DNA of 64,000 nt from positions 16,689-80,688 of the IMG/VR virus record IMGVR_UViG_3300013126_000019. One strand, 5' to 3'. The DNA is from a virus. The notes beneath the pieces are model-generated. The model worked only from the letters and a program-made list of their open reading frames with translations. It had not been told where the DNA came from and made no database searches. How positions within the stretch are numbered: the first letter of the stretch is position 1; each line of letters begins with the position of its first letter. The translations under genes were made by a program, and so were the position numbers. This document shows positions 56,756-64,000 of this stretch, piece by piece.

Positions 56756-57079
56756 ATGAACACAACTCGACCAATCTTATCCTGCGCGGGTAGAAAAGCA
56801 GTGTCTATTGACTCTGCTCTATTACAGGAACTCTTATTGAGTTTCAAACCTAACACCATTGGAATCAGAGAAAGGGCAAACCGATTAGGAAACTCCTTAT
56901 TTGCATTAGACTCTGGTGAATATGGTGATAAAAGCCTTGAAGCATTCAAGGAAATAATCACAACTGAGTTCTTATCTATCCAACTGATGGAGGCAAGCAA
57001 ACTTGCGAGACAGGGATCTGCGGATGCTGTTGCTGATGCACCATCAACGGATGATAGCGAGTACCATCTTGGTGCGTAA
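56756..57079 (+). CDS. early hypothetical protein (about 107 aa; start reassigned to MNTTRP)
   Basis: The track start at 56585 lies inside the terminator; an AT-rich leader precedes ATG 56756. Confidence 0.65.
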   Translation: MNTTRPILSCAGRKAVSIDSALLQELLLSFKPNTIGIRERANRLGNSLFALDSGEYGDKSLEAFKEIITTEFLSIQLMEASKLARQGSADAVADAPSTDDSEYHLGA

Positions 57080-57089
57080 CTCATTAACT

Positions 57090-57122
57090 ACAGGGTATCC
57101 CAATTGGGGTACTCTGTTTTTT
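57090..57122 (+). terminator. intrinsic terminator
   Basis: ACAGGGTATCCC-AATT-GGGGTACTCTGT followed by a T run. Confidence 0.8.
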
Positions 57123-57428
57123 ACTATAACCTCTCTCCAATAAACCAATATACTACTATGGTTGGAAAGCTAACTGAGTCTTGTATGTGGGATGGAGACA
57201 GACTAATATGCTGTAAATGAGTGTGTTAGTATTTTACCATTCTTGGAATCCTATGAGAGACACAAGGAGAGGGAAGGGCATGGAAATGCTTGTATGCGCG
57301 CTTCGCGCGCTTCTTTTCCCCCCGCGCGCTTTACGCAAACTCACTTTATTCAAGGTATTGCGCTTCGCGTGAGTGTTAACTCATATGCGTGATTACCAAC
57401 AAGTTAGGATATTATATAGATACATACA

Positions 57429-57992
57429 ATGTTAAAAGCAATTTACATTGGTAGTGGCGAGAAGGGAGTTTCTCGTAATTACAAGGTTACCGGTCCTACA
57501 ACCGAGTTAGTAGCATTTAAAGCTTGGAACTTAAGCCAAATTGGTAAAGATGGATTACCTATCTTACGCAAGTTCCCAGATGTACTTACTGTACCAAGCA
57601 AGCTTTATAATGAAGCCGGTGAGATTATTGGTGACAAGCCTTTATTCTTTACAGGTATTGTGCAAGCAAGACAATTGTTAGCGGGTGAGCGTATAGGCCA
57701 AACGGTCTATGAGTTAATTCCAAATGCCTATGAATCAGCTATTAAGGCTGTTATGGAGAGCGATGGAATTGAGGTTACCACAACATTGGTTAACTTGGGA
57801 GTTATTAATAAGGCAGAATTAGACTCTGCAACTTATGGGATGGCTCACGAGTTACCTTCAGGTACTGCAGTTCCCACTGTTGCAACGCCTACTTTGTCAA
57901 ATAACATTGATTTATCAATGCCAGAGACACCAGCTGATGAATCTAAGCCTGAAACCAAAGGTTCAGAGAAAAAAGACTACACAAAGTCTTGA
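57429..57992 (+). CDS. early hypothetical protein (187 aa)
   Basis: Follows the fourth repeat copy; disordered acidic tail like the 227-aa protein. Confidence 0.75.
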   Translation: MLKAIYIGSGEKGVSRNYKVTGPTTELVAFKAWNLSQIGKDGLPILRKFPDVLTVPSKLYNEAGEIIGDKPLFFTGIVQARQLLAGERIGQTVYELIPNAYESAIKAVMESDGIEVTTTLVNLGVINKAELDSATYGMAHELPSGTAVPTVATPTLSNNIDLSMPETPADESKPETKGSEKKDYTKS

Positions 57993-58641
57993 TAATCAAG
58001 TAGTTAAGAGTGAGTATGTGAGTGTTAAAAACCCACTGCTCACTCTCTAACTATCTGATTACCAGCACAAAAAGTACAAAAAGTTGAACATTATATGGCT
58101 AGCTATGATACGCACTATTAACTTTATTGGTAAACTCTATTCTCACATTGTCTCTATGTATTACTCTCTTAGAGATAGATACTACTATGTTAGATTTCAC
58201 ATAGTCAGGCTCCGGGGCGGAGTTTGCTACGGTTACTTCTCTGTTAGTGATGACCCCGATAATGTCATTGCTCTATAAGTGATACCTTTCACTAGTTTAA
58301 TCCTAGTCTAACTTTCACAGGTAAAACTTGTACTGATATACAGGTAATCCTATACTAGGTAGGTTCTTGGTTCCGTGGGTTAATCACCACGTTAAACAGC
58401 AGGATTATATGATACACTAATGTTTTTTTAAATCAAGTTGGAAAACAGAAGGTGATGCCTATAATCTAATAGGCTATGTGTATTTACCCAAAGGTCAGTC
58501 TATGGGATATTACTGAAGTAATAGTTACACGGATGATTGGTATAAGGACTTGACAAGTCTATCCAAAGGTAGTTTGAAATTACAGGTGTATGTCAAAACA
58601 CCACTAACAAAACAGTTGTATTGTATTACAGTACAACTGTT

Positions 58642-58834
58642 TGTATTAATGCACCATAACTTACTTCACAAGGGTAAGCAGTTGTAACAAACCTTCTTGA
58701 TAAACCTGAATAATTACAGGTCAAGGTAATGCTATGCTTGTCATAGATATACACAACGGACTCTATGAGTCTAAACTAGGTTAGGAAGTGATTCCTTATA
58801 ACCAATGTGTTACAACTGAGTGCAGAGTGGTACA
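58642..58834 (+). ncRNA. twister-ribozyme-like element 1 (type P1 variant with extended P5)
   Basis: P1 TGTAT/GTACA; TAA; P2 TGCAC/GTGCA; P4 CTTACT/GGTAAG; L4 TCACAAG; T1 TCAC:GTGG; GAG; P5 CAGTTGTAACA/TGTTACAACTG. Confidence 0.7.
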
Positions 58835-58888
58835 TAGTGTGCAAGAGACCGATTTTTGATTAAGTTTATCGGTCAGTGTTTAACTTAG

Positions 58889-58928
58889 AAACCGTGGGTG
58901 TTTAGCCGTGCCCACGGTTTTACTTTTT
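58889..58928 (+). terminator. intrinsic terminator-like hairpin
   Basis: AAACCGTGGG...CCCACGGTTT-TACTTTTT. Confidence 0.6.
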
Positions 58929-58977
58929 ACGGTTAGCTATATTGATGAGTAAACAAAAACAACTAATAATAACAACT

Positions 58978-59178
58978 ATGGCAGAAATTAAAGAAATCAC
59001 TATGTGCAAAATAACTCTTATTGAAGACATCAATAAAGTGCACAAGCTTAGTACAGGTACTAACATTAACGTAAATACATTTGATACTCTATATGATATG
59101 AATGTAGAGAGATTAGAGATACATTTGCAAATGGTAGTCTTTAAATACGAACTTATGAAACTTGTTAATGAAATGTAA
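58978..59178 (+). CDS. small protein, paralog of 62956..63192
   Basis: KITLIEDINK.H.L....FD.LYDM..E.LE..LQ is shared; A-rich leader before ATG 58978. Confidence 0.7.
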   Translation: MAEIKEITMCKITLIEDINKVHKLSTGTNINVNTFDTLYDMNVERLEIHLQMVVFKYELMKLVNEM

Positions 59179-59277
59179 CTTAACAACTAATAAGAAATAA
59201 AATACTCCGAGGGTGCAGTAATCGTCAACCACAGTAAATATGTGAGTTTGGGTTACTGTACCTACGAGTATACTATA

Positions 59278-59351
59278 TTGTAAAGTAAAGAATGTTAACT
59301 GCACTATAAACTAAATGGTATGTTACACAAACACATTCTGTATCTTTACAA
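59278..59351 (+). ncRNA. TROVE-associated hairpin RNA, unit A
   Basis: Outer stem TTGTAAAG/CTTTACAA; AGAATGT/ACATTCT-G; CTGCACTATA. Confidence 0.65.
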
Positions 59352-59356
59352 CCTTA

Positions 59357-59443
59357 TATTCTTACTCTTAAAGGAATAGTCTCAGCACTATAACTCTACC
59401 ATCTAAATAGGTTAAACAGTCCCTATTCTGCAGAGTAAGAATA
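59357..59443 (+). ncRNA. TROVE-associated hairpin RNA, unit B
   Basis: Outer stem TATTCTTACTCT/AGAGTAAGAATA; GGAATAG/CTATTCT-G; CAGCACTATA. Confidence 0.65.
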
Positions 59444-59448
59444 CAAAT

Positions 59449-59574
59449 TGTTATAATATTAGCTAGTACAACGGACAAGGCTCAGGGTCAAGGTGATTTA
59501 CCGTCAAGGTAACATTCTACCGTTAAATAGACATGGGTAGCGCGTGGTTGACCAGCTAGCTAATTATTGTAACA
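59449..59574 (+). ncRNA. multi-stem structured RNA between units B and C
   Basis: Closing stems TGTTATAATA/TATTGTAACA and TTAGCTAG/CTAGCTAA; inner GGTCAA/TTGACC and TTACC/GGTAA. Confidence 0.5.
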
Positions 59575-59578
59575 TTAA

Positions 59579-59689
59579 GCACATCAAAGAATGAAACAGC
59601 GCTATATATATAACTATAACGCAAAACCCAGAGATTGGTAGGCCACAGCAGTTAACTGCAAGGCTCTCTCGTCATTCTGTAGTATGTGC
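59579..59689 (+). ncRNA. TROVE-associated hairpin RNA, unit C
   Basis: Outer stem GCACAT/ATGTGC; AGAATGA/TCATTCT-G; CAGCGCTATA. Confidence 0.6.
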
Positions 59690-59756
59690 AAAGCCGGGTA
59701 GTGATACTCGTGGCCTGCCAAACTCAAAATTGTTTAACCTTAAATTCCTTAAAGCA

Positions 59757-61154
59757 ATGGATAACTTTACCAATGCAATGTTTTCTAATGACAGTCTTAC
59801 TAATAACGGTGCTATTACACATAGTACTGCAGGTAATTACTGTCTTGACCTGTTCTTTTTAGCAGGTGCGAGCCGTGAAATGTCTAATGAAGATATCTTA
59901 AAAGCATTTATTAGAGCTTATCATGAAGATAAGTCAATAGCTCTTAAGATTCTATTTTGGGCACGTGATGCACGTGGTGGTGCTGGTGAGAAGAGATTCT
60001 TCCAGGTTATTATGCGATCTTTATTAGCCAATGAACCAGAGGTATATGAGCAGTTAGCTATATATATCCCAACTTTTGGCTATTGGAAGGATATTTTTGT
60101 TATTGAGACACCTACCGAGAACACCCTTAATTGGTTATCTATTCAGTTAGATGAAAACCCTAATGCTAATCTATTAGCTAAGTGGTTCCCAAGAAGAGGA
60201 CCTTGGTTTGTAGCAATGCATAAGTATTTGGGTGTTAGCCCTAAAGCTTTCCGTAATCGCTTAGTTACTATGTCTAATACCGTAGAGCAGAAGATGTGTG
60301 CTAATGAATGGGAAACTATTCAGTATAGCCAGGTACCTTCTGTTGCAGGTAAGACATATAGTAGAGCATTTAACATGCACGATGGTGTAAGATACGCCTC
60401 TTATATCAGTGATGTTATGGAAGGTAAGCAGAAGATGAATGCTTCAGTACTATTTCCTAGTGATCTTGTACATAAAGTATTTGCGGGTGAGTCTGATACA
60501 AGTGCATATGATGCAATGTGGAAGTCTCTACCTAACTTTATGCAAGATTGTACAGAGCGTATATTACCGGTATGTGATGTATCAGGTAGTATGGCAGGTA
60601 CACCTATGGAAGTATCTATAGGACTAGGTATGTATATCTCAGAACGTAACGAGGGTCCTTTTAAGGATTTAGTGTTAACGTTTAGTAATGAACCCGAGTT
60701 TCACATGATAGAGGGTAATACTTTTACTGAAAGAGTAAATAACCTACATCAAGCAAACTGGGCTATGAATACTAATCTTTATTTAACATTTAAAGTATTA
60801 CTGAGACGTGCTGTTGCAGGTAAAGTATTACAAGAAGAGATGCCTACTAAGATCCTGATTATCAGTGATATGGAATTTGATAGGGCTTGTGGTAATCATA
60901 CAAACTTTGATGAAATCAAGGATATGTATGCACAAGCAGGTTATCAAATGCCGGGCTTAGTCTTCTGGAATGTTAACGGTAGACTTGGTAATTCACCAGT
61001 TAAAGCTGATACACCAAACACTGCACTTGTTAGTGGGTTTAGTCCCAGTATCATCAAGTCTGTATTAGGTGGTGATGACTTGAGTCCGGTAGCTGTGATG
61101 CTGAAGACTATTAATACAGAAAGATATGAATGCATTAAAGTAGATTCTCTATGA
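59757..61154 (+). CDS. Ro60/TROVE-like RNA-binding protein with VWA (MIDAS) domain, DUF2828-type
   Basis: T.NGA..H.T, LDLFF, RDARGGAGE, GYWKD, AKWFPR, MIDAS DVSGSM, SDMEFD, FWNV and VSGFS motifs; ATG at 59757. Confidence 0.85.
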   Translation: MDNFTNAMFSNDSLTNNGAITHSTAGNYCLDLFFLAGASREMSNEDILKAFIRAYHEDKSIALKILFWARDARGGAGEKRFFQVIMRSLLANEPEVYEQLAIYIPTFGYWKDIFVIETPTENTLNWLSIQLDENPNANLLAKWFPRRGPWFVAMHKYLGVSPKAFRNRLVTMSNTVEQKMCANEWETIQYSQVPSVAGKTYSRAFNMHDGVRYASYISDVMEGKQKMNASVLFPSDLVHKVFAGESDTSAYDAMWKSLPNFMQDCTERILPVCDVSGSMAGTPMEVSIGLGMYISERNEGPFKDLVLTFSNEPEFHMIEGNTFTERVNNLHQANWAMNTNLYLTFKVLLRRAVAGKVLQEEMPTKILIISDMEFDRACGNHTNFDEIKDMYAQAGYQMPGLVFWNVNGRLGNSPVKADTPNTALVSGFSPSIIKSVLGGDDLSPVAVMLKTINTERYECIKVDSL

Positions 61155-61423
61155 AAGCATTATTTATAATTCTGTATTATGTTATAGGACTTACGGCAGT
61201 TACAATAATTGCAGTAGGTTGTGATCATAAACAACCTGAAGCTGCAACTAAGTACCCTTATCTTATTAGAGATGGTAGAGATTATGGTACTATGATATAC
61301 TGCGATAAAGCTACATCATTAAGCGCTAGCAGAGTACAATACATTAGGGGTAGTGATACCCTTATTGTTGAGTCTGATAGGTACCTGTACATCCAAACTA
61401 ACTCATACTATATCCCTAAATAG
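61151..61423 (+). CDS. lipoprotein
   Basis: MK, hydrophobic stretch, then IAVG-C lipobox; ATGA-coupled to the TROVE gene. Confidence 0.7.
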   Translation: MKALFIILYYVIGLTAVTIIAVGCDHKQPEAATKYPYLIRDGRDYGTMIYCDKATSLSASRVQYIRGSDTLIVESDRYLYIQTNSYYIPK

Positions 61424-61450
61424 GTTAATATAATATGAATTTATAATCTT

Positions 61451-61484
61451 AAATAGAGTGTATCAATGACATACACTCTATTTT
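61451..61484 (+). terminator. terminator-like hairpin
   Basis: AAATAGAGTGTAT...ATACACTCTATTTT. Confidence 0.5.
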
Positions 61485-61564
61485 CCTATACTCTATGTTA
61501 CCGGGAAATCGGTTAAGGGACAACGGTCCCGGGTTAAGAATTAGTCACTACTCGGTGACATAGA

Positions 61565-61810
61565 GTTACTAATGTGCCACAACCCTAGTGTATGAAGACT
61601 TCTTAGTGACAGCCATTAAACCATTAAGATGTGAAACCACAATAATTAACTTGAGCTAACCATAAAGACAGGGCTATGCGTGACTCAGTTCACCCTGTTA
61701 GTTAATCATTTTCCCAAGTTAGGGCAGTTGTAGCAGTACGTGAAAGCACGTAAATTATGGACGCTGTAGCCCAGCAAACCAGCTACTACAACTGAGCACA
61801 GAGGGGTAAC
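61565..61810 (+). ncRNA. twister-ribozyme-like element 2 (with an insertion of about 120 nt in L4)
   Basis: P1 GTTAC/GTAAC; TAA; P2 TGTGC/GCACA; P4 CCCTAG/TTAGGG; TCCCAAG; T1 TCCC:GGGG; P5 CAGTTGTAG/CTACAACTG. Confidence 0.6.
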
Positions 61811-61914
61811 AAGCATAGCATAAGTGCTGATGAAACGATGCAAGTATGGGATACTTACTATCTCACATGTAGACTGAAAGGTCTACTCTTTAAGTAATCT
61901 AATCACACAACATC

Positions 61915-62145
61915 ATGGCTCCAGAAGAAAAGGGAAAAGAAATTCAAGCGGAGATTACAAGGATAATCAGAGAAAGAGGTACGCTAAGTAGAAAGCTACA
62001 AGCAGATGGACATCCTAACCCAAAAAATGAAGCTAGTAGGCTAATCAATCTCAAGTATGGAAAAGGTTGGAAAGAAAAGCTAGAACTGCAAGATCCCACT
62101 AGAGAGTATGGGAAAAATCTGTTAAAAGTGTCTTATTACTATTAA
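61915..62145 (+). CDS. hypothetical protein
   Basis: 76 aa; TAATCACACAA leader shared with the next gene. Confidence 0.65.
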   Translation: MAPEEKGKEIQAEITRIIRERGTLSRKLQADGHPNPKNEASRLINLKYGKGWKEKLELQDPTREYGKNLLKVSYYY

Positions 62146-62158
62146 TCACACAAAACTT

Positions 62159-62434
62159 ATGAGAAGCAATAAAGAACTATTAGAGCTGATGTTAAAGAAT
62201 CAGCATCATTTTACAAAAGTATCAGGTTTATGTCACTGGGTAAATCTTGTTTGTGCTCATAAAGTTATTACTGAAGATGAAGCAGATTCTCTTATGTCAT
62301 TAATTCATTGGAATCGCCCACGGAAGAAGTGGAGCAGCATTAGTGCTTACAGTAACGCAGGCTTCTACTGGGAGCCAGGTAAAATCAAGCCACGTATTAA
62401 GTGGATCAAAAAGCAAATCAAACTAAATTCTTAA
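62159..62434 (+). CDS. hypothetical protein
   Basis: 91 aa; GLC...FYW...RIKW pattern seen in small phage proteins. Confidence 0.65.
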   Translation: MRSNKELLELMLKNQHHFTKVSGLCHWVNLVCAHKVITEDEADSLMSLIHWNRPRKKWSSISAYSNAGFYWEPGKIKPRIKWIKKQIKLNS

Positions 62435-62438
62435 TCAA

Positions 62439-62945
62439 ATGGCAAAATCAATACCTGCTACTAAAATGGTAGCTAAAAAGCCTGTTGCTAAAACTAAATC
62501 ATCACCTGATTTTTTAGAAAAAGTGACAACAGTTAAAGTTAATTGGAAGAAAGTACCTAATGGAACTTATGTTAGTGTTGGGGTAGGTAGTAAAAGAACT
62601 ATCTCTGGTTTCTTTTATAGAGAAGAACCATCAGCTGATGAGTTTTTTATCTTACATGATAATTACAATAATGCTGGAAATTCTCCTAAATATATGTCAA
62701 CTAGTACTTTCAAGTATGGTTGGGTTATTCTTGATGATGATACTGAACTTCTTGAAGACGTTGAGTTTCCTCCAATATTGTTTGATCGTAAAACAATGAG
62801 ACTTCCTAAAAAACCAACTAATGTTATTAGAATTGGTGATTATGACGCTACTGTTACTAATGCTAGTATCAAAGTAGGGTGTACTACAGTACCCCGCAAG
62901 AAAGTAGAAGCTGTGCTTAAACTCATGCAATCACTTGATAAATAA
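62439..62945 (+). CDS. hypothetical protein
   Basis: 168 aa; C-terminal IGDY.A.V...IKVGC motif. Confidence 0.7.
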   Translation: MAKSIPATKMVAKKPVAKTKSSPDFLEKVTTVKVNWKKVPNGTYVSVGVGSKRTISGFFYREEPSADEFFILHDNYNNAGNSPKYMSTSTFKYGWVILDDDTELLEDVEFPPILFDRKTMRLPKKPTNVIRIGDYDATVTNASIKVGCTTVPRKKVEAVLKLMQSLDK

Positions 62946-62955
62946 AACTAATAAA

Positions 62956-63192
62956 ATGGATACAGAACACTTAACAAAGATTACTCTTATTGAAGATATC
63001 AATAAGATGCATAATCTAGAGTACGGGGGTAACCTCACTGCAGAAAATTTTGATGAACTGTATGACATGCCTAATGAAGATTTAGAGCGTGTGCTACAGA
63101 TTATAACGGCTCAACATGAGCGTGCGGGCCTTAGTGCTGCTGAACTACTTAACTTTCTTACTAATACTTCTCAATATGGCAAAAAAGATTGA
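62956..63192 (+). CDS. small protein, paralog of 58978..59178
   Basis: KITLIEDINK...FDELYDM; ATG at 62956. Confidence 0.7.
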   Translation: MDTEHLTKITLIEDINKMHNLEYGGNLTAENFDELYDMPNEDLERVLQIITAQHERAGLSAAELLNFLTNTSQYGKKD

Positions 63193-63484
63193 TGAACTTA
63201 CAGAAAAGCTAAGTCATGAGGATAATGATCTTAAAGCTATGGGTATTATTAGGAAGATTACCCGGGAAAAACGTAATGATAACTTTTTAGATAAGTGGTT
63301 ACCACGTATTGAAGCAAAGTGTACCGTTACAGTTGATCCAAACATGGGTAAGTATACTATTCAACCCACACCAAAGGGTATTATAGATTACTACCCAAAA
63401 TCCAATAGACTATTAATCCGTACAAGTAATACTTGGAAGGATGGTGGTCTTGCAATATTAATTAACTTACTGAAACTAAGATGA
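63176..63484 (+). CDS. hypothetical protein (start reassigned to MAKKIDE)
   Basis: ATG at 63176; IDYYPKSNRLLIR..W. Confidence 0.65.
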   Translation: MAKKIDELTEKLSHEDNDLKAMGIIRKITREKRNDNFLDKWLPRIEAKCTVTVDPNMGKYTIQPTPKGIIDYYPKSNRLLIRTSNTWKDGGLAILINLLKLR

Positions 63485-63801
63485 GCAAGACAAAGAACAC
63501 CCCAGAATTTCAACGCATGATGGATGAGCAAGAACTTATGCAATCTTTTCACCATGCTGAACAAGAGTTAGAGCGTGAGCAACTACTCAAAGATTTGGCA
63601 ATAGAAGATGCTATGCGTGATGCTATTCAAGAGTATATAGAAGCACAGAAGACTTTTATATCTGCACAAGACAAGTTTAAGAAAGCATTGGACTCATACA
63701 AAGAGTACAAGAATGGTCTTACAGATGAAGAGCAACCAGTAGAAGATACCGTAAGCCTATTAACCAATATGTTTGCAGGATTTAACCCTAATGCCCTATG
63801 A
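63481..63801 (+). CDS. coiled-coil hypothetical protein
   Basis: ATGA-coupled 106-aa ORF. Confidence 0.65.
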   Translation: MSKTKNTPEFQRMMDEQELMQSFHHAEQELEREQLLKDLAIEDAMRDAIQEYIEAQKTFISAQDKFKKALDSYKEYKNGLTDEEQPVEDTVSLLTNMFAGFNPNAL

Positions 63802-63965
63802 AGAAAGTTAACTTTTATATATTACTATACTTTGTAGTAATTATAGTTGTGGCTTCCTTGGTTTCTTGTACTCCGAGTAAACAAGTAACGGTGAACCCGT
63901 GTGAGAATATGGTAGTTAAGACTAAAGGGTATAACCCTAATCACTTACTACCTTATAGACATTAG
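63798..63965 (+). CDS. small lipoprotein (55 aa)
   Basis: Not in the ORF track. ATGA-coupled; MKK, hydrophobic stretch, then LVS-C lipobox. Confidence 0.65.
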   Translation: MKKVNFYILLYFVVIIVVASLVSCTPSKQVTVNPCENMVVKTKGYNPNHLLPYRH

Positions 63966-64000
63966 TCCTATTAGTCAGGACCTAACTAATAAAATTTATA

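Follow-up and report, generated by a model that had tools for sequence, protein, structure and literature searches.

Copy 2, the element at 61565-61810 on the plus strand of the window (the whole 64,000-nt stretch of DNA analysed here, from an 80.7-kb IMG/VR record), probably belongs, in diverged form, to a branch of type-P1 twister ribozymes specific to phages, and within it to a sub-branch that carries a two-hairpin arm; it is predicted to be self-cleaving. In the sequence alignments, the arm of this sub-branch (I1/I2 plus I3) sits directly after the P4 5′ strand and ahead of the conserved U with which loop L4 starts. Copy 2 possesses the fold (P1, P2, P4, P5, T1 and the arm stems), an insert homologous to those of other phages, and an intergenic position in sense orientation.

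All twister blocks were found in copy 2 in the correct order, i.e. P1, U^AA, P2, P4, the UCCCAAG loop, P5 and GAGGG (Table 1), and every block by which the initial annotation had aligned it with copy 1, the canonical arm-less member in the same window, was located in the sequence at its place. A first MAFFT alignment of the two copies was uninformative. The insertion that had been noticed inside L4, with a length of about 120 nt (61589-61711), was delimited to ∼123 nt (61588-61710), flanked by the P4 5′ strand and loop L4. Minimum-free-energy folding of the copy 2 RNA recovered P1, P2, P4 and P5 as well as both inner stems that had been read in the insert (ATTAACT 61645-51 / AGTTAAT 61700-06, and ACAGGG 61668-73 / CCCTGT 61693-98). 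The 3′ part of copy 2 alone matched a model made from other copies with an E of ∼1e-5, and the 5′ word TAATGYRCCAYAA has two occurrences only on the plus strand of the 80.7-kb record, namely copies 1 and 2, which are the only two family copies of that record; because the insert is also homologous to sequences in other phages, a chance origin is excluded.

Table 1. Features of copy 2, its comparison copy and a neighbouring conserved block (window coordinates unless a locus is named)
Feature	Position	Strand	Sequence and partner	Remark
Possible P0 hairpin	61544-61559	+	GUCAC UACUCG GUGAC	5 nt 5′ of P1; read from the letters
P1 5′ strand	61565-61569	+	GUUAC; partner 61806-61810	5/5 Watson-Crick; in the minimum-free-energy fold
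L1 5′ strand with predicted cleavage site	61570-61572	+	U61570^A61571, then A61572	
P2 5′ strand	61573-61577	+	UGUGC; partner GCACA 61796-61800	2 pairs compensated relative to consensus UGCAC/GUGCA
T2 (PK1)	61578	+	C; partner G61718	conserved C of the twister 'NC'; followed by ACAA
P4 5′ strand	61583-61587	+	CCCUA; partner UAGGG 61720-61724	all five P4 pairs covary family-wide
Arm 1	61588-61640	+	I1 GUG 61588-90 / CAC 61638-40; internal loop; I2 ACUUCUUA 61598-605 / UAAGAUGU 61625-32; short variable hairpin cap	homologous to blocks A and B
Arm 2 (I3)	61641-61710	+	AAUAAUUAACU 61641-51 / AGUUAAUCAUU 61700-10; variable apex including ACAGGG/CCCUGU	I3 covariation
Loop L4	61711-61719	+	UU CCC A A G U; C61713-15 with G61803-05 (T1), A61716 opposite A61802, G61718 with C61578 (T2)	fits twister L4 consensus UCCCAAGC
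P5 arm	61725-61794	+	base CAGUUGUAG 61725-33 / CUACAACUG 61786-94	3′ side of L2, as twister P5
3′ core	61795-61810	+	A61795 (L2 3′ strand), GCACA 61796-800 (P2 3′ strand), G61801, A61802, GGG 61803-05 (T1), GUAAC 61806-10 (P1 3′ strand)	model match
Copy 1, canonical arm-less member	58643-58840	+	predicted site U58647^A58648	comparison copy
Conserved ∼35-nt block	61813-61850; L086:9779-9847; L115:10577-10616; L140:10905-10940			no Rfam match

To define the parent family, five copies that related contigs carry next to DUF2828 genes served to build a covariance model; scanning IMG/VR with a pattern gave at least 120 stretches, and the model at least 122 elements in ∼100 loci, often with two or three in tandem. 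The members range from 58 nt to ∼200 nt, with P5 accounting for the difference, and copy 1 scored 136.5 bits against model R1, among whose five building sequences it is, with a fold z-score of −3.2. In the 122-member alignment, 98.6% of cells pair versus 85.6% in shuffles, two-sided changes occur in 22 of the 24 pairs including two of the T1 pseudoknot, and no shuffle of 500 attained any of the observed measures; as a control, sliding the 3′ partner by 1-3 columns left pairing of just 27-46%. P2, P4 and P5 covary both in the 122 and in the 28 arm-bearing sequences, and all ten base pairs of P5 do so family-wide, the P5 base being unusually conserved in sequence. The T1 triplets are CCC:GGG in 98 distinct members, CAC:GUG in 17 and CUC:GAG in one, another pair is C:G in 110 and A:U in four, and the A/A column is invariant. 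The search pattern partly fixed the 5′ and L4 blocks and left the 3′ block free, so that the covariation of T1 and the 3′ half is an independent test; this 3′ active-site block is kept in 119-121 of the 122 members. The UAA at the predicted cleavage site, fixed by the pattern, is present in 120 of 122 members, and the T2 column pair, likewise fixed, is C:G in 120 of 122. Immediately 5′ of the T2 cytidine stands a base in perfect covariation with the one preceding the P2 3′ strand (C:G 90, U:A 29; alignment A4, columns 18/352), and its expected L4 partner stays G across the family. This pattern suggests that the second T2 pair is replaced in the family by a fifth P2 pair; either P2 would have five pairs and T2 one, or both pairings alternate.

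According to published descriptions, the P4/L4 of type-P1 twisters has the form CCGG UCCCAAGC CCGG, one pseudoknot uses a two-base 'NC' strand and the other consists of three Watson-Crick pairs and an A.A, cleavage takes place at N^A with a catalytic A and a catalytic G, and P5 lies on the 3′ side of L2; the family agrees with this block for block. Common to it and the type-P1 class (Roth et al. 2014; RF03160; rice Osa-1-4; PMC5408937; bioRxiv 10.1101/2024.07.11.603121) is the order P1, L1 (N^AA), P2, 'NC', P4, L4 (U CCC A A G N), optional P5, P2′, G-A-GGG and P1′, together with a T1 of three Watson-Crick pairs and an A.A, optional P0 and P5, and conservation of the general-acid A and the general-base G. 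In copy 2, P1, P2 and P4 are arranged around L1, L2 and L4 in the type-P1 order, T1 is formed by C61713-15:G61803-05 with A61716/A61802, and the active-site bases A61571, A61572, G61801 (the general-base G position), U61712 and A61716-17 are kept along with CCC:GGG and C61578:G61718; at the second T2 position there is a C.U mismatch, the L4 partner U61719 standing where the family consensus has G. Unlike the type-P1 twisters, the family has one extra 5′ nucleotide in L4 and a T2 of CC:GG rather than GC:GC, its first T2 position seems to act as the fifth P2 pair, its P5 base is conserved in sequence, and the sub-branch bears the two-hairpin arm of 100-250 nt in L4, outside P0, P3 and P5.

Neither copy 2 nor copy 1 reached the gathering cut-off of Rfam RF03160. 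Rfam searches at gathering thresholds on the whole window gave no twister, riboswitch, Y RNA or YrlA match; with the limit set to E 10, the segments 57000-64000, 58600-58880 and 61530-61850 likewise had no match to twister, riboswitches or Y RNA, and the whole loci of three minimal relatives had no twister match at E up to 1. For a 101-nt piece around one minimal relative, the 58-nt L084, twister-P1 was the sole Rfam match, over the full model length and with 18.8 bits (E 0.055) against a gathering cut-off of 67.2; it aligns the UAA, P2 and GAGGG of L084, through which the UAA and GAGGG of copy 2 are aligned to those of the Rfam model. Because the block-for-block fit to twister is accompanied by an Rfam score far below the cut-off, the family is called, from its sequence, a twister-type fold forming a divergent branch outside the catalogued Rfam members. 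The twister-like character initially assigned to copy 2 thus holds in its element order, conserved L1/L4 bases and T1, this one weak match being the only one in Rfam. Twister-sister (RF02681) has a loosely similar junction, some similar loop bases and also phage-related contexts, but according to a review it has no pseudoknots and cuts the opposite internal-loop strand; this identity was ruled out by the covarying T1 pseudoknot and by having no Rfam match.

The distance from A1 to L4 is 140 nt in copy 2 versus 16-17 nt in copy 1 and more than 120 canonical relatives. A blastn search of the insert (E up to 0.01) against the loci collected at that stage and against the window yielded no match, and its homology surfaced only when a descriptor scan combined 5′ cores with 3′ cores lying far away. 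At L049:7251-7641 the A1-L4 distance is 217 nt, and the insert there has the words AUGAAGACUUCU and AAGAUGUGAAACCAC in common with that of copy 2. The insert blocks GUGGAUAURAAGACUUCUUA ... UAAGAUGUGAAACCAC ... CUGAUUAA/UUAAUCAG were found at the identical site in ∼60 IMG/VR phage contigs, and an exact search with the block-A 18-mer retrieved a complete set of 63 stretches, nearly all of them followed by block B, L4 and the 3′ core. The consensus of the arm-bearing members (n = 28 aligned) reads P4 5′ strand, GUGGAUAURAAGACUUCUUA, a variable hairpin, UAAGAUGUGAAACCAC, (A)CUGAUUAA, a variable hairpin, UUAAUCAG(U), CU CCC AA GG and P4 3′ strand. Across this subfamily arm 1 consists of I1 (GUGG/CCAC), an asymmetric internal loop and I2 (ACUUCUUA/UAAGAUGU, with an invariant U.U), arm 2 is I3, and the whole arm spans 100-250 nt. 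In the 28 members 95.6% pairing and double changes at 20 of 43 pairs were determined, values that were reached by none of 500 shuffles. Covariation was found in two of the three arm stems: I3 shows two-sided changes in six of its eight pairs, and the top pairs of I2 vary as UUA/UAA, UUG/CAA, UGA/UCA and UCA/UGA; I1 is invariant across the subfamily and hence gives no covariation signal either way. Part of the arm's invariance is due to exact-word searching.

The reviews consulted name only P0, P3 and P5 as optional twister stems, and literature searches on twisters in phage or crAss contexts and on L4 insertions turned up no L4 domain. All core bases are kept in the ∼60 IMG/VR elements that bear the arm at this same site, which supports the earlier suggestion of a new tolerated insertion site. 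According to a crystal-structure review, the conserved L4 uridine pairs with an L4 adenine atop P4, and the arm enters immediately 5′ of this uridine, where the canonical family members already have one extra nucleotide; given this entry point, the arm plausibly extends from the top of P4, clear of both T1 and T2.

Among the 28 arm-bearing members copy 2 is the most diverged, differing at 11 of the 88 columns with at least 90% conservation among the other 27, while the next differs at eight and most at 0-5. Four of its differences make up compensated P2 pairs (61575/76 with 61797/98), and all five pairs of its P4 (CCCUA/UAGGG) are unlike the consensus and still paired. Not compensated are the loss of 2 nt from block A, which leaves I1 with three pairs, a G to A at 61644 that produces an A61644.C61707 mismatch in I3, and, in L4, a C to U at 61711 and, at the second T2 position, a G to U (61719). 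The deletion in the arm, the A.C mismatch and the G-to-U at T2 mean that copy 2 may cut poorly, and its activity is probably reduced compared with that of the consensus members; in published high-throughput assays, single mismatches in the T2 pseudoknot lower but do not abolish cleavage.

These changes also bear on the strongest alternative, that copy 2 descends from the arm-bearing ribozyme subfamily, has lost efficient cleavage and persists as a neutral relic or a plain structured spacer. Its rank as the most diverged member, the changes left uncompensated in block A, in I3 and at L4 position 9, and the cost of pseudoknot mismatches in the assays would fit such decay, as would a search with block A/B and 3′-core words in the fetched 3-kb flanks of the DUF2828 gene in the closest relatives, which found no ortholog of copy 2. 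We nevertheless consider decay rather unlikely. The catalytic and T1 bases of copy 2 are all intact, a non-G at L4 position 9 occurs in other subfamily members too, e.g. L049/L200 and L206, with A also seen at the position of 61719, and the changes in P2 (two pairs) and P4 (all five) were compensated, from which we conclude, as far as sequence comparison allows, that the fold of copy 2 was under selection after its divergence. The inactivated scaffold that the initial annotation had offered as one option is accordingly unlikely for the subfamily and possible for copy 2 itself.

In the preferred reading, copy 2 as a self-cleaving twister, the element would be transcribed together with the flanking plus-strand genes, and in the folded RNA L4 (CCC-A, G) would be paired with both GAGGG and C61578. 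The chain would then be cut between U61570 and A61571, giving an upstream RNA with a 3′ cyclic phosphate and a 5′-OH RNA comprising the ribozyme and ORF 61915-62145; the likeliest role would be the cutting of polycistronic phage RNA between genes. The arm would most likely be a folding or docking module off the top of P4 that leaves the active site intact. Conserved extra domains on a small catalytic core that may aid folding or control are known from extended hammerheads with their loop-loop contacts and from the glmS ribozyme-riboswitch; these have no sequence or family relation to the arm of copy 2.

An arm that regulates is a second alternative, in which a small molecule, a protein or another RNA bound by it would gate T1/T2 formation and cleavage, as had also been raised initially. 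The near-invariance of blocks A and B, including the U.U and the asymmetric internal loop AUAURAAG opposite GAAA, exceeds what a simple helix needs, and the arm directly adjoins the strands forming both pseudoknots. Against this stand the exact-word artefact in the invariance, the usually structural nature of extra ribozyme stems, the lack of a match to any known aptamer family at E up to 10, and neighbour genes that do not point consistently to a ligand, so that we regard allostery as improbable. It would be a similarly long shot that the arm is a sensor for a metabolite, a phage or host protein or another part of the transcript, deciding whether T1/T2 form; such elements would be the first natural allosteric twisters, timing polycistronic cuts in lake and crAss-like phages.

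The genomic context is that of a tailed phage from lake water, with the portal, the large terminase subunit and the major head protein encoded on the record; a search of sequencing runs found no RNA run with the sequence, its sole strong match being one lake-water DNA metagenome, possibly the sample of origin. Copy 2 lies 142 nt past ORF 61151-61423 and 105 nt ahead of ORF 61915-62145, all on the plus strand. The same arrangement prevails in the family: of 150 elements ∼129 are outside ORFs of at least 70 aa, and the next ORF is on the same strand for 116 and on the opposite strand for 10, at a median distance of ∼200 nt. A strong intrinsic terminator (58888-58921) follows ∼50 nt 3′ of copy 1, which is therefore at the 3′ end of a transcription unit. 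Between the two copies, ORF 59730-61154 (474 aa) encodes a protein with Pfam DUF2828 and DUF7788, assigned to PHROG 850 'RNA-binding protein'; its relatives are found in KVP40-like Vibrio phages, Bacillus phages and jumbo Erwinia phages, and blastn of the locus against GenBank phages gave matches confined to the DUF2828 gene.

It is highly improbable that these are twister-shaped RNAs with another role, e.g. as partners of the DUF2828/TROVE-like protein like Y RNAs with Ro60, since the two copies flanking the DUF2828 gene, the copies within 3 kb at six of 43 related DUF2828 loci and the unusually conserved P5 base are outweighed by conservation concentrated on exactly the catalytic bases of twister and by a DUF2828 gene at just ∼4 of 234 family or candidate loci. 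The latter count also gives no support to a role for the TROVE-like protein and, together with the lack of a Y RNA or YrlA match in Rfam searches of the window, speaks against a Y RNA or YrlA identity. From the six of 43 and ∼4 of 234 loci, the DUF2828-RNA pairing is a trait of the lineage of the window phage, not of the RNA family.

Twister is among the best-studied small ribozymes; its accepted plan admits additional stems at P0, P3 and P5 only, and its L4 is part of the active-site scaffold. If true, the arm-bearing sub-branch would mean that a catalytic loop can host an entire domain; such RNAs would be a ready-made scaffold for engineering switches, and natural regulation would become a possibility. 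The parent family, with hundreds of copies in environmental phages, often tandem, sense and intergenic, is missed by Rfam, so that censuses of ribozymes in phage genomes are likely undercounts. Copy 2 itself adds little beyond one more, rather degraded, example.

Several minor observations were made around the elements. Just 5′ of copy 1, a hairpin (58612-58640; AACAGUUGUA...UACAACUGUU) reuses the P5-base words CAGUUGUA/UACAACUG and could be a P0 stem or a competitor of P5. Upstream of the DUF2828 gene, a gene-poor stretch of ∼1.4 kb (58280-59730) contains long hairpins (∼59342-59460) and a structured segment (59600-59730), and a comparable GC-rich hairpin lies right before the DUF2828 gene at two other loci (L014, L015). 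ARAGORN detected no tRNA in the window. The word CUGAUGAAAC downstream of copy 2 was considered as a hammerhead and rejected, being without stem II and without Rfam match. The conserved block of ∼35 nt (AGCAUAGCAUAAGUGCUGAUGAAACRAUGC) stands 3′ of a twister-type element in four unrelated phage contigs (Table 1), has a hairpin after it and may represent a further small structured RNA.

At other loci, a Hatchet ribozyme (RF02678, 78 bits) was identified at L049:5635-5767, ∼1 kb upstream of a pair of canonical and arm-bearing elements, in line with reports that self-cleaving ribozymes are clustered near one another and near phage genes. Contig L034 has an arm-bearing copy without the T2 cytidine (1715-1895), then an ORF (1960-2470), then a second, degenerate copy (2468-2625); the ORF, with a GIY-YIG-like motif, extends into the 5′ part of the degenerate copy, after which comes a hammerhead-like CUGAUGAG...CGAAAC scoring under the Rfam gathering cut-off. 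Two family-bearing contigs also carry tmRNA genes, at L062:69-403 (−) and L142:7798-8271 (+).
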